Source: Candidatus Pelagibacter ubique HTCC1062 (GTDB lineage Bacteria > Pseudomonadota > Alphaproteobacteria > Pelagibacterales > Pelagibacteraceae). From it: a stretch of DNA of 32,000 bases. Below the pieces are notes generated by a model. The model did not search any database. It saw only the letters and a list, made by a program, of their open reading frames with translations, and was not told the origin of the DNA. The translations under genes and the position numbers were made by a program. Location: contig NC_007205.1 of the NCBI RefSeq assembly GCF_000012345.1, positions 810,001 to 842,000 of the forward strand, in the 5' to 3' direction. Shown piece by piece: positions 1 to 26,507 of this stretch (position 1 is the first letter of the stretch; the number at the start of each line of letters is the position of its first letter).

Positions 1-600
1 ATGAATTGATGTACCTAAAAATAAACCAACAAACATTGGTTCAGCATCAAAGTAATAATTAGCAAAATAAGGATATATAAGCATCGATAAAATTCCAAAC
101 AAAGTGATGTTAGCAATTGCATATGATACTTCATTTTTTTTTGCACCAATTACTGGAGCAGTTGCCATAATTGCTGTTGTCCCACAAACTGTGCTACCAA
201 TAGATATTAAGTAAGCCATTCTTGTTGGGATTTTAAGTTTTTTAATTAACAGTTTTATAACTATTAGTACTGTTACAATACAAATTATAATTAAAGGTAT
301 AGCCACAGCTCCAAATTCTAAAAACTCAAAAGGTTTTAATTGAATTCCTAAACAAATTATTCCAAGTTTGAGAATATATGATTGAGTAAAGTCCAAACCC
401 TTTACAAAGTTATCTCTTATTTTGAATATATTTCCAAAAAGCATTCCAAGTAAAATAGCAATCATGGCTGTCGATATTGGACTTTTATCGTAACCTAATA
501 ATTCAATACCAATAATATTATTAAATCCTTGAGATAAACTGTAGAGAACAAACGCTAAAACAATACCTGGCAAAATGACCAGATATTTTTTAAATAACAT
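1..600 (-). CDS. YeiH/UPF0324 (PSE family) putative sulfate/sulfite exporter, N-terminal 200 codons; gene continues beyond the left edge
   Basis: Absent from the ORF track because it has no stop inside the window. My reverse-complement translation from ATG 600..598 gives MLFKKYLVILPGIVLAFVLYSLSQGFNNIIGIELLGYDKSPISTAMIAILLGMLFGNIFK... and stays open to base 1 (...FLGTSIH). It is polytopic and hydrophobic. The SPxxxAMIAILLGMLFGN stretch matches my memory of YeiH-type proteins. Family call is from memory, not a search. Confidence 0.65.
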   Translation of the reverse strand, partial: MLFKKYLVILPGIVLAFVLYSLSQGFNNIIGIELLGYDKSPISTAMIAILLGMLFGNIFKIRDNFVKGLDFTQSYILKLGIICLGIQLKPFEFLEFGAVAIPLIIICIVTVLIVIKLLIKKLKIPTRMAYLISIGSTVCGTTAIMATAPVIGAKKNEVSYAIANITLFGILSMLIYPYFANYYFDAEPMFVGLFLGTSIH

Positions 601-618
601 TACTTTATAGATAAATTT

Positions 619-1797
619 TTAAGCACTTCTGTAAAGTTTAGTCATAACAAACTCTTTATGACCTAAAGCTTCAGCACAAGTTAATCTACCGTTAGCAACT
701 CTAATCATTGATTTGATTAATTCGTCACCAGCTTGTGATAAATTCATTTCACGAGATAGAATTTTCGATACATCACAATCAATATGCTCACCCATACCTT
801 TTACAGTTAATGGGTTGGCAGTTAACTTAACAACAGGTTCAATTGGATTACCTACGATATTACCTTGACCTGTTGGGAATAAATGAATGTTAAATCCAGC
901 AGCTGCTTGAAGTGTAATACACTCTGCTGCAGCAGATGAAGTATCCATAAAGTATAATCCTTTTCCTTTAGTAGGCTCTTCAGCTGGTTCTAAAACATCA
1001 ATAAACTTACAATTTCCAATTTTTTGGAAATTACCAAATGCTTTTTCTTCAATTGTAGTTAATCCACCTGCAATATTTCCCGCAGTTGGTTGACTTTCAG
1101 AAAGATCATCTGTTGCTTCTTTTAAAATAAAGTCGTTGTAATCGCTCCAAGTTTTCATGAATTTTTCTGAAGCTTCTGGAGTGGCACCACGTGTAGCACA
1201 AACTTTTTCAGCACCAGTTAATTCTGAGGTTTCACCAAAACATAAATGAACTCCTAATGGCTCTAATTTATCCATTAAGTTTCCAACTGTTGGGTTAGCA
1301 GCAAGACCTGATGTTGTATCAGATTCACCACATTTAACTGAAATCCATAAATCGCTTAAAGGACATTCTTCTCTTTGTTTTTCAGAAGCCCACATTGCAA
1401 ATTCTTGTGCTTTTTTAGAAGCCTTCATGATTGTTCCAATATCACCAGTTCTTTCAATGTGAAATCCTTCAACTGGTTTTCCAGTTTTAGCAATTTCATC
1501 AACAATTCTTTTTGTCCATTTAGGTTCAATTCCAATAACAATTACAGCAGCAACGTTAGGATTTTTCCCAGTCCCAATCATTGTTCTAAAGTGTAGATCT
1601 AAATCAGCACCAAATTGAAGTCTTCCGTAAGAGTGAGGAAGAGCTATTGTACCTTTAATATTATTTGCTACAGCTTCAGCACAAGCATTTGATATATCAT
1701 CTACAGGTAAGATGATTACGTGATTTCTAGTACCAACTCTGCCATTTTCTCTTTTATAACCTAAAAAACTTTTTGGAATTTCCATATTTTTTACCAC
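619..1797 (-). CDS. suyB: UxaA-family dehydratase/lyase large subunit, probably (2R)-sulfolactate sulfo-lyase beta subunit (SuyB-like)
   Basis: 392-aa [24 protein letters not shown]... and the overall length match the catalytic C-terminal part of altronate-dehydratase (UxaA) family enzymes. It follows a separate 94-aa SAF-domain ORF, the two-subunit layout described for SuyAB, and its neighbours are xsc and a PSE-type exporter. The track start at 1797 is GTG and overlaps suyA by 7 nt. ATG at 1785 (MEIPKSF...), 5 nt after the suyA stop, is an equally good start. Confidence 0.6.
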
Positions 1798-2075
1798 TTC
1801 TTCGTTTTTACATTGTGAACGTGAACATGTTCACCTTTTTTGATTGATTTAACTACTTTTCCAATATCGTGACCATATTTCAAAATAGTATCACCTTCAT
1901 TAAGGTCAACCATTGCAATTTTATGTCCTAATTGAATTTCATCTACTGATTGAATTTGAACTGTTTTATCATTCTCCATAATCCAACATGCGCAATCTTG
2001 TTTTGGAGTAATTTTATCAATAACAACTACTCCTACGTTGTCTTTCTCGTCGTGTATAATAATATCTGTAGCCAT
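1791..2075 (-). CDS. suyA: SAF-domain small subunit of a UxaA-family enzyme, probably sulfolactate sulfo-lyase alpha subunit (SuyA-like)
   Basis: 94 aa. DNVGVVV...[43 protein letters not shown] is the classic SAF/UxaA N-terminal pattern (DNVava ... GHKiAl ... G..v.kYG..IG.a...I..GehVH.HN). It is a stand-alone small ORF directly upstream of the large subunit. Confidence 0.6.
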
Positions 2076-2186
2076 AATTGTGTCGATTTGTTTGTTTGAA
2101 ATTTTTTAAATCTTATATATTAATCTTTAAAATTAACAAATTATTTATAGATTTTTTAACAACTTAAGCAGGAAGGCCTAATTATT
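2076..2186. promoter_or_regulatory. Divergent suyA / xsc control region with Shine-Dalgarno candidate for xsc
   Basis: 111-nt AT-rich spacer between divergent start codons, one of only six spacers over 100 nt here, so it should hold both promoters. AGGAAGG at 2170..2176 lies 10 nt upstream of the xsc ATG. No -35/-10 hexamers are called because such matches are uninformative at this AT content. Confidence 0.5.
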
Positions 2187-3971
2187 ATGACTAAAATGAC
2201 AACAGAAGAAGCTTTTGTAAAAGTTTTACAAATGCATGGAATTGAACACGCATTCGGAATTATCGGTTCAGCTTTTATGCCTATTTCAGATATCTTTCCT
2301 GATGCTGGAATTACCTTTTGGGATGTTGCTCATGAAACAAACGGTGGATTAATTGCTGATGGTTACACAAGATCTACTGGCAAAATGTCAATGGTTATTG
2401 CTCAAAACGGTCCTGGAATTACCGGTCTTGTAACACCAATTAAAACTGCATACTGGAACCACACACCATTATTATTAGTAACACCTCAAGCTGCCAATAA
2501 AACTATGGGTCAAGGTGGCTTTCAAGAAGTAGAACAAATGAATTTATTTAAAGATATGGTTTGCTATCAAGAAGAAGTTAGAGACCCTTCAAGAATGGCA
2601 GAAGTATTAAATAGAGTAATTGAAAAAGCGATCAGAGGATCAGCTCCAGCACAAATAAATGTTCCAAGAGATTATTGGACACAAGTAATTGATATAGATC
2701 TTCCTCCAATTGTTAGACTTGAAAGGCAAGCAGGTGGAGTTGATGCAATTAAAAAAGCAGCTGACTTATTATCAAACGCTAAGTTTCCAGTAATACTATC
2801 TGGTGCAGGTGTTGTTATTGGTGGGGCAATTGAAGATTGTAAAAAATTAGCTGAGAAATTAGATGCTCCAGTTTGTTCAGGGTATCAACATAATGATAGT
2901 TTTCCAGGAAGTCACCCATTAGCAGCTGGACCTTTAGGCTATAATGGATCAAAAGCTGGAATGGAATTAATTAAGAAAGCTGATGTTGTTCTTGCACTTG
3001 GTACAAGATTAAATCCTTTCTCAACTTTACCAGGTTATGGAATGGATTACTGGCCTAAAGATGCAAGTATCATTCAAGTTGATATGAATTCAGATAGAAT
3101 TGGTTTAACTAAAAAAGTCACAGTTGGTATTTGTGGGGATGCAAAATTAGTATCACAACAAATTTTAGCTCAACTTTCTCCAACAGCAGGAGATACAAAT
3201 AGAGAAGAGAGAAAAAATACAATTCACCAAACTAAATCTGCTTGGTTACAAGAGTTATCAAGTTTAGATCACGAAGATGATGATGAAGGTACAGTTTGGA
3301 ATGCAGAAGCAAGAAAAAGAGATGCAGATAGAATGTCTCCTAGAGAAGCATGGAGAGCAATTCAAGCAGGTATGCCTGATGATGTAATTATCTCAAGTGA
3401 TATTGGTAATAACTGTGCAATTGGAAATGCTTATCCAACATTTGAAAAAGGTAGAAAATATTTAGCACCAGGATTATTTGGTCCTTGTGGTTATGGTTTT
3501 CCAGCAATTCTTGGAGCAAAAATTGGATGTCCTGATACACCAGTAATTGGTTTTGCAGGTGACGGTGCATTTGGTATTAGCATGAACGAAATGAGCTCAT
3601 GTGCTAGATCAGAATGGCCAGCAATTTCAATGGTAATCTTTAGAAATTACCAATGGGGTGCTGAAAAAAGAAATACTACTTTATGGTTTGATGATAACTT
3701 CGTTGGAACAGAGCTTGATCCAGAATTAAGTTATGCAAAAGTTGCTGATGCTTGTGGATTAAAAGGGGTTACTGTTCGAACCATGGAAGAGACTACTGCT
3801 GCTATCAAGCAATCATGTGAAGATCAAAAGAAAGGGATTACAACATTTATTGAAGTAATTCTTAACCAAGAACTGGGAGAGCCTTTCAGAAGAGATGCTA
3901 TGAAAAGACCAGTTAAAGTTGCAGGGATCAAAAAAGAAGACATGATCAAGCAACCTTCGCTAGTTTCATAA
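2187..3971 (+). CDS. xsc: Sulfoacetaldehyde acetyltransferase (ThDP-dependent, EC 2.3.3.15)
   Basis: 594 aa. The N-terminus MTKMTTEEAFVKVLQMHGIEHAFGIIGSAFMP... closely matches the characteristic Xsc N-terminus as I remember it. The ThDP motif GDGAFGISMNEMSS...NYQWGAEK is present. Length is typical for Xsc (about 590-600 aa). No small regulatory subunit follows, as would be expected for acetolactate synthase. Confidence 0.85.
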   Translation: MTKMTTEEAFVKVLQMHGIEHAFGIIGSAFMPISDIFPDAGITFWDVAHETNGGLIADGYTRSTGKMSMVIAQNGPGITGLVTPIKTAYWNHTPLLLVTPQAANKTMGQGGFQEVEQMNLFKDMVCYQEEVRDPSRMAEVLNRVIEKAIRGSAPAQINVPRDYWTQVIDIDLPPIVRLERQAGGVDAIKKAADLLSNAKFPVILSGAGVVIGGAIEDCKKLAEKLDAPVCSGYQHNDSFPGSHPLAAGPLGYNGSKAGMELIKKADVVLALGTRLNPFSTLPGYGMDYWPKDASIIQVDMNSDRIGLTKKVTVGICGDAKLVSQQILAQLSPTAGDTNREERKNTIHQTKSAWLQELSSLDHEDDDEGTVWNAEARKRDADRMSPREAWRAIQAGMPDDVIISSDIGNNCAIGNAYPTFEKGRKYLAPGLFGPCGYGFPAILGAKIGCPDTPVIGFAGDGAFGISMNEMSSCARSEWPAISMVIFRNYQWGAEKRNTTLWFDDNFVGTELDPELSYAKVADACGLKGVTVRTMEETTAAIKQSCEDQKKGITTFIEVILNQELGEPFRRDAMKRPVKVAGIKKEDMIKQPSLVS

Positions 3972-4010: not shown

Positions 4011-5612
4011 ATGGTTAGTTATGATGCTATAATAATTGGTGCAGGCTTTTCAGGTATTTATCAATTACATAGCTTAAGAGATAAATTAAAACTTAACACT
4101 CTAGTAATTGAGTCAGGTAAGGACTTAGGTGGTACTTGGTATTGGAATAGATATCCAGGGGCCAGATGTGACTCAGAAAGTCATACTTACAACTTTACAT
4201 TTTCAAAAGAGATATTTGAAAATTGGTCATGGCCAGAAAGATATTCAAAGCAAGACATCATATTAGAATATTTAAATTATGTTGTTGAAAAATTAAGTTT
4301 AAAAAAAGATATGCTTTTTGATAATAAAGTTATTAAAGCACATTTCGATGAAAAAAGTAATTTATGGAACATCAAAACCAATAAAGACAAAACTTTTTTA
4401 TGCAAATATTTAATTAGTGCTGTTGGCTGTTTATCAGCAGCAAACATTCCAAAAATAAATGGTTTAAGAAAATTTAAAGGTAAATGGTACCATACAGGAA
4501 AATGGCCTCATACTGGTGTAGATTTTAAAAATAAAAGAGTTGCACAAATTGGTGTTGGTTCTACTGGAATACAGTTGGCACCCGAGATAGCTAAATCAGC
4601 AAAGAAGCTTTCAATTTTTCAGAGATCACCAAATTTTAGTATTCCAGCAAGAAATGAAATTGTTAATGATAAATATAAGAAAAAGATAAAAGATAATTAT
4701 CAAGAAATTAGAGATTTAATTAAGTCAACACCAACTGGTCACGCTTTTCATTTTTCAAGTCAGTCCACTTTTGATGTCAGTAATGAAGATAGAAAAAAAA
4801 TTTATGAAAACGGGTGGCAAAAGGGTGGGTTGGGTTTTCGCGGTCTTTTTAAAGATATAACAACAAATTTGGATGCTAATAAAACAATTGTTAATTTTAT
4901 TAAAGAAAAGGTAGAGACAACAATGCTAAATAAACATTATGCTAAAGTTGTGACAGATTTTAAATATCCATTTGCAACTAGAAGACCAACTTTAAATACT
5001 GATTATTATGAAACTTTTAATAAAGATAATGTCGAATTAATTGATATCTCGAAAGACTCAATAAAAGAAATTACTGAAACTGGAATCAGCACCATAGAAA
5101 ATAACTATGAATTTGATATAATTGTATTTGCAACAGGGTATGACGCTATTACAGGTGCACTATTATCAATTGATATGGTGGGTAAAAATAATATCAAACT
5201 AAGTGAATTATGGAAAAATGGTCCATTAACTTATTTAGGTCTACAGATACCTGGATTTCCTAATTTTTTTACCATTACCGGACCTGGAAGTCCCTCAGTA
5301 TTAACAAATGTTCCAATGGCTATAGAGCAACATGTCGAGTTTATAACTGATTGTATTTCACATATGGAAAAAAATAAATATTCAACAATTGAAACTAATA
5401 ATGATTACTCTTTAAAGTGGAGAGGGGTAATTGATAAAGCTGTAGAAGAAACATTAATACCAGAGTCTAAAAGCTCATGGTTGTATGGCGGTAATATTGA
5501 AGGAAAACCCAAAGTTTTTATGCCTTACCCATCTGGACTTCCAAAGTATAAAAAGATTTGTGAAGACATTGTTTTAAAAAACTATGAAGGTTTTAATTTT
5601 GATAAGCATTAA
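4011..5612 (+). CDS. Type I Baeyer-Villiger monooxygenase (cyclohexanone/acetone monooxygenase-like, FAD + NADPH)
   Basis: 533 aa. Has an N-terminal GAGFSG Rossmann motif, the GGTWYWNRYPGARCDSES block typical of CHMO/PAMO-type BVMOs, an exact BVMO fingerprint FxGxxxHxxxWP (FKGKWYHTGKWP), and a second dinucleotide motif GVGSTG. Confidence 0.85.
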   Translation: MVSYDAIIIGAGFSGIYQLHSLRDKLKLNTLVIESGKDLGGTWYWNRYPGARCDSESHTYNFTFSKEIFENWSWPERYSKQDIILEYLNYVVEKLSLKKDMLFDNKVIKAHFDEKSNLWNIKTNKDKTFLCKYLISAVGCLSAANIPKINGLRKFKGKWYHTGKWPHTGVDFKNKRVAQIGVGSTGIQLAPEIAKSAKKLSIFQRSPNFSIPARNEIVNDKYKKKIKDNYQEIRDLIKSTPTGHAFHFSSQSTFDVSNEDRKKIYENGWQKGGLGFRGLFKDITTNLDANKTIVNFIKEKVETTMLNKHYAKVVTDFKYPFATRRPTLNTDYYETFNKDNVELIDISKDSIKEITETGISTIENNYEFDIIVFATGYDAITGALLSIDMVGKNNIKLSELWKNGPLTYLGLQIPGFPNFFTITGPGSPSVLTNVPMAIEQHVEFITDCISHMEKNKYSTIETNNDYSLKWRGVIDKAVEETLIPESKSSWLYGGNIEGKPKVFMPYPSGLPKYKKICEDIVLKNYEGFNFDKH

Positions 5613-5627
5613 AATTATTTAATAATT

Positions 5628-6377
5628 ATGAATAAAATTGATTTAAAAAATAAAATTGCAGTAGTAACTGGAGGAGCTCAAGGTTTTGGATTGGCTATTT
5701 CAAAACGCTTTATAGAATCTGGTGCAACTGTTGTAATTTGGGATATAGATTCAATAGCTACTAAAGACGCAATAAAAATTATAAATTCAAAGAAATGTTA
5801 TGCTTTTCCAATTGATATAACAAATTATAAAAAAGTTAAAGAAGGCATCAAACAAGTTTTAAAGATTTGTAATAAGATAGATATTTTTGTTAACAACGCT
5901 GGATACCATGGGATAAATGCAAATACATGGGATTACCCAATTGATGAATGGGAAAAGATTTTAAAAATTAATTTAACAGCAACATACTACTGCTGTAAGG
6001 CTGTTGTTCCTCACATGATTAAAAATAATTATGGAAGAATTGTTAACATTTCATCAAATGCTGGAAAAGAAGGAAACCCAACTGCAGCATGTTACAGTTC
6101 TGCTAAAGCTGGAACTATCGCTTTAACTAAATCTTTAGGAAAAGAATTAGCTGATAAAAATATTTCTGTTAATTGTGTTACACCTGCAGCTGCAAAAACA
6201 AGAATTTTTGATGAAATGGAACCTGAATTTATAGACTATATGCTTTCAAAAATTCCTAGAAAAAGATTTGCTAAAGTTGAAGAGTTAGCCTCTTTAGTTT
6301 CCTGGCTTTCTAGTGAAGAAAATTCTTTTGCTACTGGTGCCGTTTATGATCTTACGGGCGGAAGAGCAACATACTAA
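5628..6377 (+). CDS. Short-chain dehydrogenase/reductase (SDR), copy 1 of a paralogous pair
   Basis: 249 aa with TGGAQGFG cofactor motif, NNAG, and catalytic YSSAK (YxxxK). It is 15 nt downstream of the BVMO stop. About 58% identical (my hand alignment) to the SDR at 28936..29682. Confidence 0.85.
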   Translation: MNKIDLKNKIAVVTGGAQGFGLAISKRFIESGATVVIWDIDSIATKDAIKIINSKKCYAFPIDITNYKKVKEGIKQVLKICNKIDIFVNNAGYHGINANTWDYPIDEWEKILKINLTATYYCCKAVVPHMIKNNYGRIVNISSNAGKEGNPTAACYSSAKAGTIALTKSLGKELADKNISVNCVTPAAAKTRIFDEMEPEFIDYMLSKIPRKRFAKVEELASLVSWLSSEENSFATGAVYDLTGGRATY

Positions 6378-19949: not shown

Positions 19950-20726
19950 ATGAAACTAAAAGATAGAATAGCAATAGTCACAGGTGGTGGAAAAGGAATT
20001 GGTGCAGAGATTTGTGTAAGACTAGCAAGTGAGGGAGCAAAAATTGTTATAGCTGAAATGGATATTGAAAATGGTGAAAAAATTTCTAAAAAAATTCAAG
20101 GTAATAATGGTGAAGCAATTGTTGTAGAAACAAATGTTGCCGAAGAAGATAGTGCAAATAACATGGCTGATGTTGCTATTAAAAAATTTGGTAAGATTGA
20201 TATTCTTGTTAATAATGCTGGTATAAGACATATTAACAATATTCTAGATCATACAAAACAGCAATGGGATGACATGATATCGGTAAACTTAACCGGACCA
20301 TATCTATGCTGTAAGTCTGTTATTCCTCATATGATAAAAAATGGTAAAGGAAAAATTATTAATTTTGGATCTATTGCAAGTTTTATGGGTAGACCTGATA
20401 GAGTAGCCTATGTTGCTGCAAAATCTGGTATACTAGGTTTAACGAGAGCCTTAGCGGTCGATTTAACTGGGAAAAATATTAACGTAAATACTATTTGTCC
20501 TGGGTTAATTTCAACACCTTTCAATCAAAAATTTGCTGAAGATCCTACTCACGGTAAAGCTTGGGGCAAAGAAACTATAGTTGGACGTTGGGGTTTGCCA
20601 TCTGATATATCTGGTGCAGCTGTTTTTCTATCTAGCGATGATGCAGATTTTATAAATGGATCTGAAATAAAAATTGATGGTGGATGGTTAGCAGCAAAAA
20701 CTAGAAAAGGTGAAATAAGTAATTAA
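19950..20726 (+). CDS. Short-chain dehydrogenase/reductase (SDR)
   Basis: TGGGKGIG, NNAG, YVAAKSG (YxxxK) and a C-terminal IKIDGGW are present. Start set at ATG 19950 (MKLKDRIAIVTGG); the track uses TTG 19887. Confidence 0.85.
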   Translation: MKLKDRIAIVTGGGKGIGAEICVRLASEGAKIVIAEMDIENGEKISKKIQGNNGEAIVVETNVAEEDSANNMADVAIKKFGKIDILVNNAGIRHINNILDHTKQQWDDMISVNLTGPYLCCKSVIPHMIKNGKGKIINFGSIASFMGRPDRVAYVAAKSGILGLTRALAVDLTGKNINVNTICPGLISTPFNQKFAEDPTHGKAWGKETIVGRWGLPSDISGAAVFLSSDDADFINGSEIKIDGGWLAAKTRKGEISN

Positions 20727-22246
20727 TGAGTGATGATTTTAAAAATAATTTAGAACTAGCACTAGGTAATGCAAAAAGATTATCTAATAAAATTTTAATT
20801 AATGGAAAATTGTCACCTGCTAAAGCTGAAGCTAAAATTAGCGTATTAAATCCAAGTACAGGTGAAAATATTGGTGAAGCTCCACAGTGCAATAAGGTTG
20901 ATGTGAATATAGCGGTTGATGCAGCAGAAGCTGCATTTCAAAAATGGAAAAAAGTACCTGCGAGAGAACGTGGTAAAATAATGACGGCTGCTGCTAGAAA
21001 ATTAGAAGATAGAAAAAATGAAATTGAAACATTATTAGCTTTAGATACTGGTAACGCACTTAGAACTCAAGCCATACCGGAGACAGCAGCATCAATTGAA
21101 TTAACTCATATGTTTGCTGGACTTGCAGGAGAAATAAAAGGTGAAAATTATCCACCAAACATTCCAAATACAATTCATTACACAACCAAAGATCCAATTG
21201 GAGTTGTTTGTGCAATTATTCCTTGGAATGCTCCTTTATTTTTGACTGTTGCAAAAATTGCACCAGCTATTGTAGCGGGAAATACTGTAGTGTTAAAAAC
21301 TGCTGAGCAAGCACCACTTTGTGCTTTACTCTTATGTGAAATATTACAACAAGAACTTCCTCCTGGAGTTTTAAATGTAATTTCAGGCTATGGAGAAGAG
21401 TGTGGTGAACCATTAATTGATCATCCTAAAGTTAGAAAGGTTACTTTTACAGGATCGTTTTCTGTTGGAAAAATTATTGCAATAAAAGCTGCTCCAAAAT
21501 TATGTCCAGTTACATTAGAATTAGGTGGAAAAAATCCAAATATTATAATGAGTGATGCTGACTTAGATATAGCAATACCAGGCGTAATTGATGGTATGAG
21601 GTATACTCGTCAAGGACAGGCTTGCACCGCAGGATCAAGAGTTTATATACACGAAAAAATTTATGATAAAGTTTTAGAAGGTGTAGTTTCTAAATTAAGT
21701 AAACTTAAGATGGGAAATGCACTTGATAGTAAATCTGATATTGGCGCAATAATATCTAATGAACAACTCAAAAGAACCTTACATTATATGGACATTGCTA
21801 AAAAAACATCATCTGCAAAGGTTTTACATGGTGGCAATCAACCTAAAGGAGGAGATTATAAGGAAGGTTTCTTTTATGAACCAACCTTATTGTCAGGCGT
21901 TCCTGTAGAATCTCCTGTATGTCAAGAAGAGGTATTTGGCCCTGTTGCTTGCGCAATTCCGTTTAAGAGTTTTGATGAAGTTATGAAAAGCGCTAACGAC
22001 ACACCTTTTGGTTTATCAGCCGTTTTATGGACTCAAAACTTATCTAGAGCATTGCAATTTGTAGATGAAATTGAAGCTGGCTTTGTTCAGGTAAATCAAT
22101 GCGTTGCTCCAAGAGCCAATGTTTCTTATGGAGGAATTAAAATGAGTGGTTTAGGTAAAGAATATGCTTTTGATAGTATGATTAACCACTTCACACAAAG
22201 TAAAACAGTTTTAATTAATAGAGGTAAATCAAATTTAGATGACTAA
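20726..22246 (+). CDS. NAD(P)-dependent aldehyde dehydrogenase
   Basis: 506 aa with FTGSFSVGK, the catalytic Glu in LELGGKNP, the catalytic Cys in GQACTAGSR, and EEVFGPV. The ATG shares one base with the SDR stop (TAATG). Confidence 0.9.
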   Translation: MSDDFKNNLELALGNAKRLSNKILINGKLSPAKAEAKISVLNPSTGENIGEAPQCNKVDVNIAVDAAEAAFQKWKKVPARERGKIMTAAARKLEDRKNEIETLLALDTGNALRTQAIPETAASIELTHMFAGLAGEIKGENYPPNIPNTIHYTTKDPIGVVCAIIPWNAPLFLTVAKIAPAIVAGNTVVLKTAEQAPLCALLLCEILQQELPPGVLNVISGYGEECGEPLIDHPKVRKVTFTGSFSVGKIIAIKAAPKLCPVTLELGGKNPNIIMSDADLDIAIPGVIDGMRYTRQGQACTAGSRVYIHEKIYDKVLEGVVSKLSKLKMGNALDSKSDIGAIISNEQLKRTLHYMDIAKKTSSAKVLHGGNQPKGGDYKEGFFYEPTLLSGVPVESPVCQEEVFGPVACAIPFKSFDEVMKSANDTPFGLSAVLWTQNLSRALQFVDEIEAGFVQVNQCVAPRANVSYGGIKMSGLGKEYAFDSMINHFTQSKTVLINRGKSNLDD

Positions 22247-23165
22247 TCACATTGCATTTATAGGTGTTGGAAATATGGGAAACCCTATGGCTGATCAATT
22301 AGTAAAAGCTGGCAAAGAAGTAAAAGCTTTTGATGTTTCACCAGAGGTAATAAAAATTGCAAAAGAGTCAGGTTTAAACGTTGTATCCACTATTGATGAA
22401 TTATTAGATGGCGCTAGTACTGTTATATCTATGCTACCAGAGGGAAAGCATGTTCGATCTCTTTATTTAGGAGACAAAGGAATATTAAATAAAATTCCAA
22501 AAGAATGTTTGATAATTGATTGCTCAACAATTGATATTGAGACTTCTCTAGAGCTAGGTAATGAATCAAAAAAACTTGGAATTAAAATGATAGATGCACC
22601 AGTTACTGGTGGTGTGATGGGAGCAAGAATTGGAAAATTAAATTTTTTAGTTGGTGGAAGTGATGAAGCTGTAGCATTAGCAAAACCTTTATTTGATATT
22701 ATGGGACAAAAAATTTTACATGCAGGTGTTCAAGGAAGTGGAGTAGGTGTAAAAATTTGCAACAATATGTCTTTGGGAATTTCTATGATAGCAGCATCTG
22801 AATCTTTAATGTTAGCTAAAAGATTAAAAATGGATATTAAAAAGGTTCATGAAATAATAAAAGCAGCTTCAGGAAATAATTGGGCTATGACTAATTATAC
22901 ACCTTTACCAAATCTTACTGATGGAGTTCCTTCAAATAATAAATACCGACCAGGTTTTACAGCATCAATGATGAGAAAGGATTTAAGGCTAGCCATGGAT
23001 GCCGCTCAGTCTGTAGATGCCTCTACACCATTAGGTAAAGCTGCTTTAGAAATTTTTTCAAAATTCTGTGATGAGGGTGATAGTGACACTGACTATTCAG
23101 GTATATCTAAAATGATTGGTGGTGATGCTTGGAATTATCCATTTGATCCAAAAGGAAATAAATAA
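22239..23165 (+). CDS. 3-hydroxyisobutyrate dehydrogenase-family (beta-hydroxyacid dehydrogenase) protein
   Basis: 308 aa with IAFIGVGNMGNPMA, DAPVTGGV and GSGVGVKICNNM (catalytic Lys motif). It overlaps the ALDH gene by 8 nt (ATGACTAA). Confidence 0.8.
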   Translation: MTNHIAFIGVGNMGNPMADQLVKAGKEVKAFDVSPEVIKIAKESGLNVVSTIDELLDGASTVISMLPEGKHVRSLYLGDKGILNKIPKECLIIDCSTIDIETSLELGNESKKLGIKMIDAPVTGGVMGARIGKLNFLVGGSDEAVALAKPLFDIMGQKILHAGVQGSGVGVKICNNMSLGISMIAASESLMLAKRLKMDIKKVHEIIKAASGNNWAMTNYTPLPNLTDGVPSNNKYRPGFTASMMRKDLRLAMDAAQSVDASTPLGKAALEIFSKFCDEGDSDTDYSGISKMIGGDAWNYPFDPKGNK

Positions 23166-23342
23166 AAACAATATTTGTAAATTTACTTAACAGTATTAAA
23201 AGTATACCAAACAATTCAATTGATTGTAGTATATTATAGGTTGTATCGTCTGTATTTAACTTATTTTAAGTTTACTTTTCTCCTACAATAATGTTTATTT
23301 CAAATTTATTAAGACTAAATAAAAAAACAGAGAGGGATAAAC
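23166..23342 (+). promoter_or_regulatory. Long leader/promoter region upstream of the TRAP binding-protein gene, with Shine-Dalgarno candidate
   Basis: 177-nt spacer, the second longest in the window. Purine-rich AGAGAGGGA lies at about 23329..23337, 5-6 nt upstream of ATG 23343. No structured-RNA motif was recognised by eye. Confidence 0.4.
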
Positions 23343-24434
23343 ATGAAAAAAATCACATCATTGATTTTAAGTTTAGTATTTGCAGTATCTATTATTGCTT
23401 CTGCTTCTGCTAAAACTTTAAAAATACAAATGACCTTTCCAAAAACTTCTTATGATGCGCAAATCGTAGGAATGTGGGCTGAAAGAGTTACTGGCCTTAC
23501 TGGTGGTTCATTAAAATTTGAACTTCTAGGAGCTGGAGAAGTTGTAGGTGTTAAAGAAACATTAGAAGCTGTTGACAAGGGTCTTGTTGATGGTGGTGCT
23601 GCTTGGACTCATTACTGGTCTAACTATCACCCTGCTGCAATGTTATTTGGTTCGCCAGTTGCAGGTGGTGGTATTGGTTTAAGTACTAAATCTTGGTTAG
23701 CTTGGTATTTTGATAACGGTGGAAAAGCTTTATACGATCAACTATGGGATGAAATGGGTATGAACGTAAAAGGTTTCATCATGGCATCTTCTGGTCCAGA
23801 GGCTTTAGGTTGGTTCAAAGAGCCGATCAACAGTATGGCTGATTTCAGAAAATACAGATTTAGAACTCCTCCGGGAATTCCTGGTCAAACATACAAAGAC
23901 ATTGGTGTTGCATCAGTTTCAATGGGTGGTGGAGATATTCTACCAGCACTTGAAAAAGGAACAATCGATGCTGCTGAATGGTGTTGTCCAAAACCAGATC
24001 TAGTATTTGGTTTCCAAAAGGTATTGAAAAATTACTACCTTCAAGGCTTACACCAAAACGTTGTAAATGGAGATGTGTTCTTTAACAAGGATGTTTATAA
24101 TAAGTTAACTGACCAAGAGAAATATGCAATGGAAATTGCTTCTGAAGCGATGATAACTAGAAACATCACTAACAGAGCTGTTGAAAATGGAAAAGCGTTA
24201 ATTGAATTAACATCTAAGCATGGTGTTATCCTTCATGATACACCAGCTGATTACTTTGTTGAGTATATGGCTGCTGCTAAAGCTACTATTCAAAAGAACT
24301 CAAAAGAAAATAAGTTCTTTGATGAAGTTTACCAGCACATGACTGCTCACGCAAAAATCGTAGTACCTTTTATTGCTCAAATGGAAACATCTGATGCATC
24401 AATTGGAACTGCATTTGCAAAAGCGCAAAAGTAA
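23343..24434 (+). CDS. dctP: TRAP transporter periplasmic substrate-binding protein (DctP superfamily, COG4663-like)
   Basis: 363 aa with signal peptide MKKITSLILSLVFAVSIIASASA. It is followed by small and large TRAP membrane subunits, and its size and order are typical of TRAP-T systems. The symbol is generic; the substrate is unknown. Confidence 0.8.
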   Translation: MKKITSLILSLVFAVSIIASASAKTLKIQMTFPKTSYDAQIVGMWAERVTGLTGGSLKFELLGAGEVVGVKETLEAVDKGLVDGGAAWTHYWSNYHPAAMLFGSPVAGGGIGLSTKSWLAWYFDNGGKALYDQLWDEMGMNVKGFIMASSGPEALGWFKEPINSMADFRKYRFRTPPGIPGQTYKDIGVASVSMGGGDILPALEKGTIDAAEWCCPKPDLVFGFQKVLKNYYLQGLHQNVVNGDVFFNKDVYNKLTDQEKYAMEIASEAMITRNITNRAVENGKALIELTSKHGVILHDTPADYFVEYMAAAKATIQKNSKENKFFDEVYQHMTAHAKIVVPFIAQMETSDASIGTAFAKAQK

Positions 24435-24446
24435 ATAAATAATTTA

Positions 24447-24482
24447 AACGGGGACTTAATATTTTTAAGTTCCCGTTTTTTT
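24447..24482 (+). terminator. Rho-independent terminator/attenuator between dctP and dctQM
   Basis: AACGGGGACTTAA (24447..24459), loop TATTT, TTAAGTTCCCGTT (24465..24477). This is a 13-bp stem with one G-U pair and a GC core, running into a T-run (24476..24482). It starts 13 nt after the dctP stop. Confidence 0.8.
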
Positions 24483-24522
24483 AAAATAGAAAAAATTTTA
24501 ATCGACATTACCAATCAATAAA

Positions 24523-25182
24523 ATGGTCAAAAAAAAATCACATTCTGCTGGTGTTAAAGAAACTCTAGATATTACTGATGAGTTAATAGCAGAACGTCGA
24601 ACTAGTTTAAAAATGCCTAAGGATATGGTTCCTTGGATGGCAAAAACTATAGAGTTTATCGACCTTAACATGTTGAGAATTGGTAAAGTAATTTGTTGGA
24701 TGGTAATTCCTTTAATTTTTGCAATGACTTTTGAAGTTATTGGTAGACATTTTTTTAATAGACCAACTCTTTGGGCTTATGATGTAACCAGAATGATTGC
24801 AGGAGCATTTTTTATGTTGGGTGCTGGTTACGCATTATCAAAAGGTATTCATATAAGAGCTGATTTTTTATATAGAAATTGGAATGTTAAAACTCAAGCA
24901 AAAGTAGATCTATTCTTATATTTATTATTCTTCTTTCCAGGTTTCATAGTCTTCTTTTGGGTAAGTTTTGATTATGCTTATACTTCTATATGTGGGAGAT
25001 CTATTTTAGCAGAATGCTTAGATGGAAAAGTTAGAATTCAAAGAGCAATGGATACTACTTGGATGCCAGTAATGTGGCCATTAAAAAGCTGCATGCCAAT
25101 TGGAGCTTTTTTGTTATTAATTCAAGGGATATCAGAATTATTTAAAACATATTATGCGTTTGTGAAAGGTAGATGGCCATAA
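24523..25182 (+). CDS. dctQ: TRAP transporter small permease subunit (DctQ-like)
   Basis: 219 aa with four predicted TM segments, positioned between the binding protein and the large permease. A hydrophilic N-terminal roughly 35 aa makes the exact start uncertain (internal Met codons at MPKDM.., MVPW.., MAKT..). Confidence 0.7.
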   Translation: MVKKKSHSAGVKETLDITDELIAERRTSLKMPKDMVPWMAKTIEFIDLNMLRIGKVICWMVIPLIFAMTFEVIGRHFFNRPTLWAYDVTRMIAGAFFMLGAGYALSKGIHIRADFLYRNWNVKTQAKVDLFLYLLFFFPGFIVFFWVSFDYAYTSICGRSILAECLDGKVRIQRAMDTTWMPVMWPLKSCMPIGAFLLLIQGISELFKTYYAFVKGRWP

Positions 25183-26507
25183 TGGAAATTTTTTCACAAG
25201 AATTAATTGGAGCAATAATGATAGGAGTAATGCTATTTGCTATCTTTATTGGTTTTCCTATTTCATTTACATTAATATTTTTAGGTCTTGTGTTTGGTTA
25301 TTGGGGTTTTGGAAAGTTAGTTTTTTATTTAATGACCCTACAGTTTAATATGATTATGACGGAAAGTACGCTGGTTGCCGTCCCACTCTTTATATTTATG
25401 GGCATATTAATGGAATCTGCAGGTCTTATGGAAAGACTATTTTCAGCCATACAATTAATGCTATCTAGAACAAGGGGTGCATTATTTTATGCAGTTATGT
25501 TTGTGTCTACAATTTTTGCTGCTGCAACAGGAATAGTTGGGGCATCAGTAACAATCCTTGGAATCATGGCAGGTAAAACTATGATTAAATCTGGATACGA
25601 TACTAGATTATCTGCAGGCTTAATATGTGCCGGAGGAACTCTTGGAATTTTAATTCCACCAAGCATTATGTTAGTGGTAATGGGGCCTGTTTTAGAAATC
25701 CCAGTAACAGATTTATTTGCTGCAGCAATAATTCCAGGAATAATGTTGGCAGTTCTTTATGCTCTTTACACCACTGTTAGATGTTATTTTGATCCAAAAC
25801 TTGGTCCAATTTTACCAAAAAGTATGCAACCAAAAAGTATGGGTAAAGTTTGGGTAGAATTCTTTTTAGGGTTAGTACCGCCTGCGGGATTAGTATTTTT
25901 TGCTCTAGGTAGCATATTATTTGGTTTAGCAACACCTACTGAAGGTGCCGGTATTGGAGCTATTGGATCTTTGTTACTTGCTTTAGCATATAAAAAATTA
26001 ACTTTAAAAACTTTAAAAAATTCTTTAATTAAAACTTTAGAGATTACTGCATTGATAATGTTTTTAGTTGCTGCATCGAATTTCTTTGGAGCAGTTTTTT
26101 CAAAATTAGGAACACCATCTTTATTAACTGAATTTTTATTAAACTTAGAAGTTAACAGATATGTTATTTTAGCTATACTAATGGCAGTAATTTTCTTGTT
26201 AGGTTGGCCTTTAGAGTGGGTACCAATAGTTCTTATTGTATTACCAATATTTGTTCCATTGATTAAAGAATTAGACTTCAACTTGACTTGGTTTGCAATA
26301 CTTGTAGCTGTGAATTTACAGACCGCCTGGTTATCTCCACCTGTAGCTCTATCTGCGTATTTTTTAAAAGGTGTTGTGCCAGAATGGGAACTTAAAGATA
26401 TTTATCTTGGTATGATGCAGTTTATGGGAATACAGCTTTTAGGTTTAATTTTGATCATCGCATTTCCTCAAATTGCACTTTGGTTACCTAGCGTAATGTA
26501 CCCTTAA
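25173..26507 (+). CDS. dctM: TRAP transporter large permease subunit (DctM-like)
   Basis: 444 aa and polytopic, with typical DctM-like stretches (VAVPLFIFMGILMESAGL, GTLGILIPPSIMLVV). Start is either ATG 25173 (10-nt overlap with dctQ) or ATG 25182 (TAATG, 1-nt overlap). Confidence 0.85.
   Translation: MAIMEIFSQELIGAIMIGVMLFAIFIGFPISFTLIFLGLVFGYWGFGKLVFYLMTLQFNMIMTESTLVAVPLFIFMGILMESAGLMERLFSAIQLMLSRTRGALFYAVMFVSTIFAAATGIVGASVTILGIMAGKTMIKSGYDTRLSAGLICAGGTLGILIPPSIMLVVMGPVLEIPVTDLFAAAIIPGIMLAVLYALYTTVRCYFDPKLGPILPKSMQPKSMGKVWVEFFLGLVPPAGLVFFALGSILFGLATPTEGAGIGAIGSLLLALAYKKLTLKTLKNSLIKTLEITALIMFLVAASNFFGAVFSKLGTPSLLTEFLLNLEVNRYVILAILMAVIFLLGWPLEWVPIVLIVLPIFVPLIKELDFNLTWFAILVAVNLQTAWLSPPVALSAYFLKGVVPEWELKDIYLGMMQFMGIQLLGLILIIAFPQIALWLPSVMYP

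Follow-up and report, generated by a model that had tools for sequence, protein, structure and literature searches.

Gene content of the locus

A 32,000-nucleotide stretch of genomic DNA from Candidatus Pelagibacter ubique HTCC1062, a member of the SAR11 group, was analysed (C1:810001-842000, where C1 is the single 1,308,759-bp contig; hereafter the window, to which positions without prefix refer). Its first 3,971 positions carry the genes of a predicted two-subunit sulfolactate sulfo-lyase (SuyAB) and a predicted sulfoacetaldehyde acetyltransferase (Xsc), together with part of a membrane protein gene. An earlier prediction made from the letters alone had listed four open reading frames (ORFs) here, and all four were found at the positions given, with a correction to the start and length of the large subunit, which is now 388 aa instead of 392 aa. 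The features are as follows.

1..600, minus strand: yeiH/suyZ-like, 5' part of a PSE-family membrane protein gene (357 aa entire, ending at C1:809527)
619..1785, minus strand: suyB, predicted (2R)-sulfolactate sulfo-lyase catalytic subunit (388 aa, GD_AH domains)
1791..2075, minus strand: suyA, SAF-type small subunit (94 aa)
2076..2186: divergent spacer between suyA and xsc (111 nt)
2187..3971, plus strand: xsc, predicted thiamine diphosphate (ThDP)-dependent sulfoacetaldehyde acetyltransferase (594 aa)

On the minus strand, 5 nt separate the suyA stop codon from the suyB ATG and 18 nt lie between the suyB stop and the yeiH start at 600. Comparison with relatives makes the ATG at 1785 (388 aa) the most likely suyB start; the GTG at 1797 (392 aa) was rejected, as the proteins of relatives mostly have 388 aa and this GTG is merely the end of suyA. 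The spacer is strongly conserved at about 2080-2140 in an alignment of 66 loci, and this stretch is presumed to function as the divergent promoter region. A promoter and terminator scan gave nothing above the chance level of shuffled sequences, and no regulator gene adjoins the suyA/xsc spacer. As had been predicted, pta, a sulfite dehydrogenase, tpa/tauXY, slcD/comC/hpsN and a TauR/SuyR-type regulator all fall outside positions 1-3971.

Assignment of the split enzyme to SuyAB

The large subunit contains the GD_AH_second and GD_AH_C domains and lacks the SAF domain (Pfam), and the suyA product matches the SAF-type N-terminal domain of altronate hydrolase (PDB 3k3s, E 1e-9). The two-gene arrangement of SuyAB (EC 4.4.1.24), a SAF small subunit adjoining a GD_AH large subunit, is hence present, but heteromeric sugar-acid dehydratases exist as well (PMC6336799), and the split form is therefore not sufficient proof of SuyAB. 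Reference SuyB proteins were taken from plasmid records, as wider protein and genome searches were saturated by SAR11 matches. Among 468 plasmid records, 13 matched SuyB at 60-70% identity and the remainder at less than 40%. The window protein is 68% identical to SuyB of the suyRABZ cluster of Paracoccus versutus and 65% identical to that of the hps cluster of Cupriavidus pinatubonensis, against about 30% for GarD/UxaA and 35-40% for the split sugar enzymes; SuyA is 40-50% identical to proteobacterial SuyA. All five annotated high-identity SuyB matches inspected lie inside sulfonate-type clusters (hpsRNOUP-suyAB; suyR-A-B-Z with hpsNOP and a sulfite oxidase; hpsNOP-suyAB-ldh-yeiH; and two with Ldh-family genes).

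A maximum-likelihood tree, in which same-cluster proxies (P. versutus and C. pinatubonensis HN-2) serve as SuyB references, places seven SAR11 proteins within the SuyB clade (support 100/100) as sister to the alphaproteobacterial SuyB (98/98), apart from GarD, the fused altronate dehydratases, the split sugar enzymes and the fused SAR11 paralogue. The last of these, the fused UxaA of some SAR11 strains, is a separate paralogue of 29-31% identity. Four cysteines are reportedly kept across the superfamily, with the sulfolactate sulfo-lyase excepted (PMC6336799); in the window SuyB three of the four columns carry the very replacements seen in the reference SuyBs (Arg in one case), the fourth cysteine being kept, and the protein matches 21 of the 23 SuyB-diagnostic columns. 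The JGI annotation of close relatives already reads '(2R)-sulfolactate sulfo-lyase subunit beta'. Identity, tree, cysteine diagnostic and synteny thus bear out the original prediction that the split UxaA-type pair is SuyAB, and the comparison with UxaA/GarD that it called for groups the pair with SuyB and not with the sugar-acid dehydratases. Recombinant SuyAB is active in other genera (PMC6278857), and SuyAB is expressed by a SAR11 metagenome-assembled genome (MAG) in an algal bloom (bioRxiv 2024.12.10.627767).

Assignment of Xsc

The 594-aa protein exceeds both curated cut-offs for Xsc, with 961.6 bits for TIGR03457 (cut-off 676.4) and 1035 bits for NF005713 (cut-off 620), and fails all acetolactate synthase models, the best acetohydroxyacid synthase (AHAS) score being 295 against a required 538. 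It contains three TPP domains and the ThDP motifs, with Glu50 as the catalytic Glu and GDG at 458. The protein, read as Xsc from the start, is accordingly a predicted Xsc (EC 2.3.3.15), which would convert sulfoacetaldehyde and phosphate to acetyl phosphate and sulfite.

Synteny and co-distribution

Gene order was compared in 80 Pelagibacteraceae loci, with the testable loci as denominators, and gene distribution in 301 genomes of the order. The two suy genes adjoin each other in 77/77 loci and xsc is divergent from suyA in 73 of 75, whereas yeiH lies directly behind suyB in 47/75 and is absent there in 28/75; the predicted conservation of the suyAB-xsc adjacency therefore holds and that of yeiH does not. 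The APS reductase gene aprA (APS, adenosine 5'-phosphosulfate) is found at most 8 kb from suyB in 64/65 loci, although in some close strains the distance is 20-40 kb. Across the order, 253 genomes have aprA and 243 have suyB. The two genes occur together in the identical 16 of 25 genomes of genus g8, and four genera have neither.

The probable sulfite-oxidizing neighbors

Immediately left of the window, the following genes were identified.

C1:804204-804599: HIT gene, before aprM
C1:804704-805498: aprM-like gene
C1:805519-805989: aprB (TIGR02060, 188 against a cut-off of 136)
C1:805989-807848: aprA (TIGR02061, 990 against a cut-off of 642)
C1:807867-808217: orf116, after aprA
C1:808448-809530: tauE-family gene, converging on yeiH

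The aprM-aprB-aprA genes lie 2-5 kb from the window edge, and AprA and AprB both pass the equivalog cut-offs for dissimilatory-type APS reductase. The original prediction implied a node without a sulfite-oxidizing partner, an implication that is not supported, aprMBA being adjacent in nearly all relatives. AprBA has been proposed to remove sulfite in this strain (PMC5069961), and AprM is regarded as the membrane link of AprBA (PMC2211403). In a search of the genome for other sulfite dehydrogenases, the only Oxidored_molyb protein was MsrP-like, and two further proteins with molybdopterin domains (688 and 923 aa) resemble NuoG and formate dehydrogenase by size only. The 116-aa soluble product of orf116 follows aprA in every intact locus inspected, including those of the distant family f2; it has no Pfam match, with a weak SnoaL/DUF4019-like lead only, and is possibly an unrecognized Apr accessory protein.

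The YeiH protein

YeiH matches PF03601 with 229 bits (cut-off 24.5; E 7e-68) and has at least seven hydrophobic segments, but stays under the TIGR00698 cut-off (164 against 232.6), and its identity to P. versutus SuyZ amounts to only 26%. It is 64-84% identical among relatives where SuyB is 93-99% identical, and relatives with a 99% identical SuyB carry a YeiH at 66-91%, which suggests allele exchange. Of 72 near-complete genomes of the genus, 14 yielded no yeiH, although nearly all of them hold suyB and xsc, and homologues also occur in genera lacking the pathway. The PSE family had been said to take its name from TauZ; the name rests instead on SuyZ of P. pantotrophus, a closer fit to this locus, and whether SuyZ itself exports sulfate or sulfite is not settled (PMC11582611). 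In Hyphomicrobium, a YeiH induced 526-fold by thiosulfate is a proposed sulfite exporter (PMC11582611). The view of yeiH as the node's own outlet is thus favored by the suyA-suyB-suyZ gene order and weakened by its dispensability, its variability and its low identity to SuyZ. It is moderately likely that YeiH, where present, exports sulfite or sulfate, but it is not required.

Feeder genes and uptake

The genes expected to supply the two lyases had seemed to be missing. A feeder cluster is nevertheless found at C1:775-786 kb, 25-35 kb from the node, and a binding protein for 2,3-dihydroxypropane-1-sulfonate (DHPS) and isethionate is encoded in the window itself. The cluster comprises an hpsN-like gene, a PTA_PTB acyltransferase, a ComC-like Ldh_2, a taurine ATP-binding cassette (ABC) transporter, an omega-aminotransferase and an alanine dehydrogenase. 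The hpsN-like product shares 57-62% identity with cluster HpsN, and the Ldh_2 protein does not reach the sulfolactate dehydrogenase cut-off. The PTA_PTB protein is the sole stand-alone one in the genome, its pta-like gene lying about 35 kb from the node. The relevant features are listed below.

C1:776343-777254: PTA_PTB protein of the phosphate butyryl/acetyltransferase type, directly before hpsN
19950..23165, plus strand: short-chain dehydrogenase/reductase (SDR), aldehyde dehydrogenase and beta-hydroxyacid dehydrogenase genes (Pfam and NCBIfam matches), before the transporter genes
23343..26507, plus strand: tripartite ATP-independent periplasmic (TRAP) transporter (DctP and DctM matches)
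23343..24434, plus strand: TRAP binding protein SAR11_0864 (DctP)

The window DctP is identified as SAR11_0864 because its ORF ends at C1:834434 and the published intergenic region that follows SAR11_0864 begins at 834435 (PMC2704228); an ORF ending at C1:786466 likewise abuts a published intergenic region starting at 786467 (PMC2704228). SAR11_0864 binds isethionate and both the R and S enantiomers of DHPS (PMC11485210, PMC13335735), and the binding protein of the taurine transporter, which gene order identifies as SAR11_0807, has been shown to bind taurine. Upstream of the TRAP genes, the SDR is 31% identical to HpsO, and the beta-hydroxyacid dehydrogenase passes the HIBADH cut-off and is only a candidate for a sulfonate role; DhpA of Desulfovibrio DF1 belongs to the same dehydrogenase group (PMC6278857). 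Positions 19950-26507 may therefore constitute a DHPS/isethionate oxidation operon with candidate steps.

Proposed pathway and alternative explanations

Taken together, the locus very probably represents the terminal desulfonation node of SAR11, in which SuyAB and Xsc release sulfite from algal and animal sulfonates and the sulfite is mainly oxidized by AprBA/AprM, with YeiH as an optional component; both enzyme assignments and the C2 plus C3 node of the original prediction are in this respect supported. In the proposed route, DHPS would be oxidized to (R)-3-sulfolactate, from which SuyAB, an Fe2+-dependent enzyme of the UxaA fold, would eliminate sulfite to leave pyruvate, a sequence that is established chemistry (PMC6278857). 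Taurine or isethionate would give sulfoacetaldehyde, which Xsc would convert to acetyl phosphate and sulfite, and the acetyl phosphate would pass to acetyl-CoA through the PTA_PTB protein. In the cytoplasm, membrane-anchored AprBA/AprM would combine sulfite with AMP to form APS and deliver the electrons to the membrane, and YeiH could provide an optional, SuyZ-like outlet for either sulfite or sulfate. We infer the activities of SAR11 SuyAB and Xsc, the direction of AprBA, the substrate of YeiH and the APS-removing step; family membership, clade position, synteny and co-distribution come from this analysis, and it was others who showed that SAR11_0864 and SAR11_0807 bind their substrates and that SuyAB is active in other genera.

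Several observations weigh against this assignment. No Sat (ATP sulfurylase) was found in this genome (PF01747 gave no match), nor an acetate kinase or acylphosphatase, and APS removal is therefore unexplained. The characterized SuyBs (P. pantotrophus NKNCYSA and Desulfovibrio DF1) are represented in the tree by their proxies, and no assay of SuyAB or Xsc from SAR11 was found in the literature searched, which has most subscription journals outside its coverage. The genomes are related, so that the counts are descriptive and non-independent; SAR11 genomes are moreover broadly syntenic, and pabBAC and metZ also accompany the block. Finally, family f2 has aprA (13/20 genomes) and xsc, but suyB in none.

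Two alternatives concern the split enzyme. It could be a heteromeric sugar-acid dehydratase of the UxaA, GarD or L-fuconate type whose position by xsc is incidental, given that the Pfam domains are the same, that split homologues also occur in fucose and KDG (2-keto-3-deoxygluconate) clusters and that GarD is the only solved relative. This is extremely improbable in view of the higher identity to SuyB (60-70%) than to GarD/UxaA (about 30%) or the split sugar enzymes (35-40%), the full support for the SuyB clade, the loss of the dehydratase cysteine set and the fact that SAR11 strains with a fused UxaA hold it as a separate paralogue. A lyase of the SuyB clade might, on the other hand, act mainly on something other than DHPS-derived (R)-sulfolactate, for instance cysteate-derived sulfolactate supplied by a ComC-like enzyme, or a 3-substituted lactate. 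SAR11 HpsN/HpsO homologues have a Km for DHPS near 100 mM (PMC11131964), the hps genes are unlinked to suyAB and the Ldh_2 protein misses the sulfolactate dehydrogenase cut-off, but a proven DHPS-binding protein in the same region, the close match of the hpsN-like gene to cluster HpsN and SuyAB expression by the bloom MAG make such a substrate very improbable.

The fate of sulfite allows another explanation, namely that it is exported by YeiH or by the neighboring TauE protein, with AprBA serving something else. The suyA-suyB-yeiH order resembles that of Paracoccus suyABZ, the thiosulfate induction of the Hyphomicrobium homologue points in the same direction, and Sat is missing. We nevertheless consider export as the main fate unlikely, since yeiH was not found in 14 of the 72 near-complete genomes, which nearly all retain suyB and xsc, and its homologues occur in genera without the pathway, and aprA follows the distribution of suyB more closely than yeiH does. 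The tauE gene is present in 22/22 genomes tested, the ones lacking apr, suy or xsc among them; it was therefore discounted as evidence for a dedicated sulfite exporter and looks like a housekeeping gene.

Candidates for the removal of APS

Canonical Sat is rare in the order, being above the cut-off in 13 of the 301 genomes as compared with 253 for aprA. The true Sat of these few SAR11 genomes (about 345-350 aa; loci L143-L147) is encoded away from apr, in some cases beside a CysC-like gene and a cytidylate kinase, which suggests island-borne sulfation genes. Two small proteins encoded near apr are of interest here. A HIT gene precedes aprM in 54/62 loci, and a small nucleotidyltransferase with a HIGH motif (hereafter the HIGH protein) takes this position in 7/62; in genus g8 the HIGH gene precedes aprM, and a HIT gene of 50% identity is often directly behind suyB instead. 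In vitro, HIT proteins cleave APS by hydrolysis or phosphorolysis (PMC4613722), and the gene was not found in 16 genomes without the pathway, nor in three aprA-positive genomes.

In this genome the HIGH gene (C1:1199269-1199640) is found 390 kb away, behind an APS-kinase-like gene:

L134:968-1749: pair of an APS-kinase-like gene and a gene for a 124-aa HIGH nucleotidyltransferase

In family f2 the HIGH gene and the kinase converge on aprA-orf116 in 10/10 loci. The HIGH protein occurs in 243/301 genomes, including exactly the 13 aprA-positive f2 genomes; it was not found in genera g3, g5, g6, g7 and g10, all without aprA, and in seven genomes it occurs although aprA is lacking. Fusions of homologues to APS kinase exist in both orders, and homologues also lie beside sulfotransferases on three haloarchaeal plasmids and in an apparent nod sulfation cluster (read by eye) that also holds CysD/N-like genes. 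The kinase-HIGH fusion was also seen in Xanthomonadales phages, in Xylella phage Sano (L171:3593-4330) and 11 other phage records.

The invariant GR(D/G) motif of the HIGH protein parallels the GRDH of Sat, but the PF01747 match and the TRNPxH active-site motif expected of Sat are not seen in it. Profile comparison with the Sat family gave a probability of 7.5%, with NadM as the nearest solved sequences, and a fold search with the model (pLDDT 91.8) ranked PPAT (Z 10.6) and NadM (9.8) above Sat 1v47 (8.6; root-mean-square deviation 3.4 over 117 aligned residues). Neither comparison placed the HIGH protein with Sat; it does not belong to the Sat family, although it may function in a similar way. 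A role as the cell's NAD adenylyltransferase is less likely, a NadD above the cut-off being present. It can be speculated, as a tentative proposal to which we give slightly less than even weight, that SAR11 completes sulfite oxidation without canonical Sat, the APS being removed by the HIGH protein, as a minimal NadM-derived APS:pyrophosphate adenylyltransferase yielding ATP and sulfate, and/or by the HIT protein as an APS hydrolase or phosphorylase. If this is true, suyAB-xsc-aprMBA would form a compact sulfonate-to-sulfate energy module, and a HIGH protein active on APS would represent a novel, minimal kind of ATP sulfurylase, one that also exists as a fusion with APS kinase in haloarchaea, on a rhizobial plasmid and in phages. 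No description of a minimal sulfurylase was found in the literature searched, to which the same coverage applies.

Comparison with known systems

In Paracoccus (proxy P. versutus pTAV3), suyABZ has the same order as in SAR11, with the gene of a PSE/YeiH transporter behind those of the small and the large subunit (SuyB 68%, SuyA 40%). SAR11 differs in lacking a GntR-type SuyR, in having xsc as the divergent partner, in a YeiH that is distant from SuyZ and often absent, and in having AprMBA and not a molybdenum sulfite oxidase as the proposed sulfite sink. The hpsRNOUP-suyAB cluster of C. pinatubonensis (proxy HN-2; SuyB 65%, SuyA 48%, HpsN homologue 57%) contrasts with the scattered hps genes of SAR11, which has no LacI regulator nearby and relies on TRAP uptake. 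The DHPS pathway of C. pinatubonensis JMP134 was reportedly described by Mayer et al. in 2010. Ruegeria pomeroyi soeABC-pta-xsc (PMC13335735) likewise links xsc to a cytoplasmic sulfite-oxidizing system, but this is SoeABC and not AprMBA; the pta-like gene of SAR11 is 35 kb away and its C3 lyase is SuyAB and not CuyA. With Allochromatium vinosum sat-aprMBA, SAR11 shares the aprM-aprB-aprA order, and P. ubique AprBA has been placed with A. vinosum in lineage I of the Apr of sulfur-oxidizing bacteria (PMC2211403, PMC3779200). SAR11 differs in the missing sat, in the HIT or HIGH gene that fills the slot before aprM and in the orf116 that follows aprA.

The suyAB, xsc and aprAB genes have been described as core or near-core in Pelagibacteraceae, with AprAB tied to sulfite removal (PMC12636525). 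The suyAB/xsc finding is thus already known in essence, and the enzyme-level reading is correct; since both the enzymes and their occurrence in SAR11 have been published, the finding itself adds little. Neither physical clustering nor an APS-consuming enzyme is named for SAR11 in the available parts of PMC12636525 and PMC5069961. What is added here is that the tree confirms SuyAB at the level of the clade, that the physical link to aprMBA is conserved, and that two small proteins, both easy to express, are candidates for removing APS, a step whose absence has long been remarked on in genome studies. No marine bacterium is more abundant than SAR11, and much of the organic sulfur in the sea takes the form of compounds such as DHPS, taurine and isethionate; a large part of sulfonate turnover therefore probably passes through this node.

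Variation around the conserved block

The Baeyer-Villiger monooxygenase (BVMO) gene after xsc (4011-6377 together with the SDR gene behind it) was rejected as a feeder, as it occurs in 0/67 testable relatives and is hence strain-specific; the SDR that follows it was likewise unseen at that position in relatives. A DAO-type gene, found after xsc in 28/67 loci (within the flank fetched), is the only gene often there. The DNA downstream of xsc and that between tauE and yeiH often carry insertions. In genus g8 (L097:14564-15235; L148-L152), pabB-pabA-pabC is replaced in place by a TenA/PqqC/heme-oxygenase-like protein of 221-223 aa, which we take to resemble the CADD-type self-sacrificing p-aminobenzoate synthases and through which the folate precursor pathway may have been replaced in situ.

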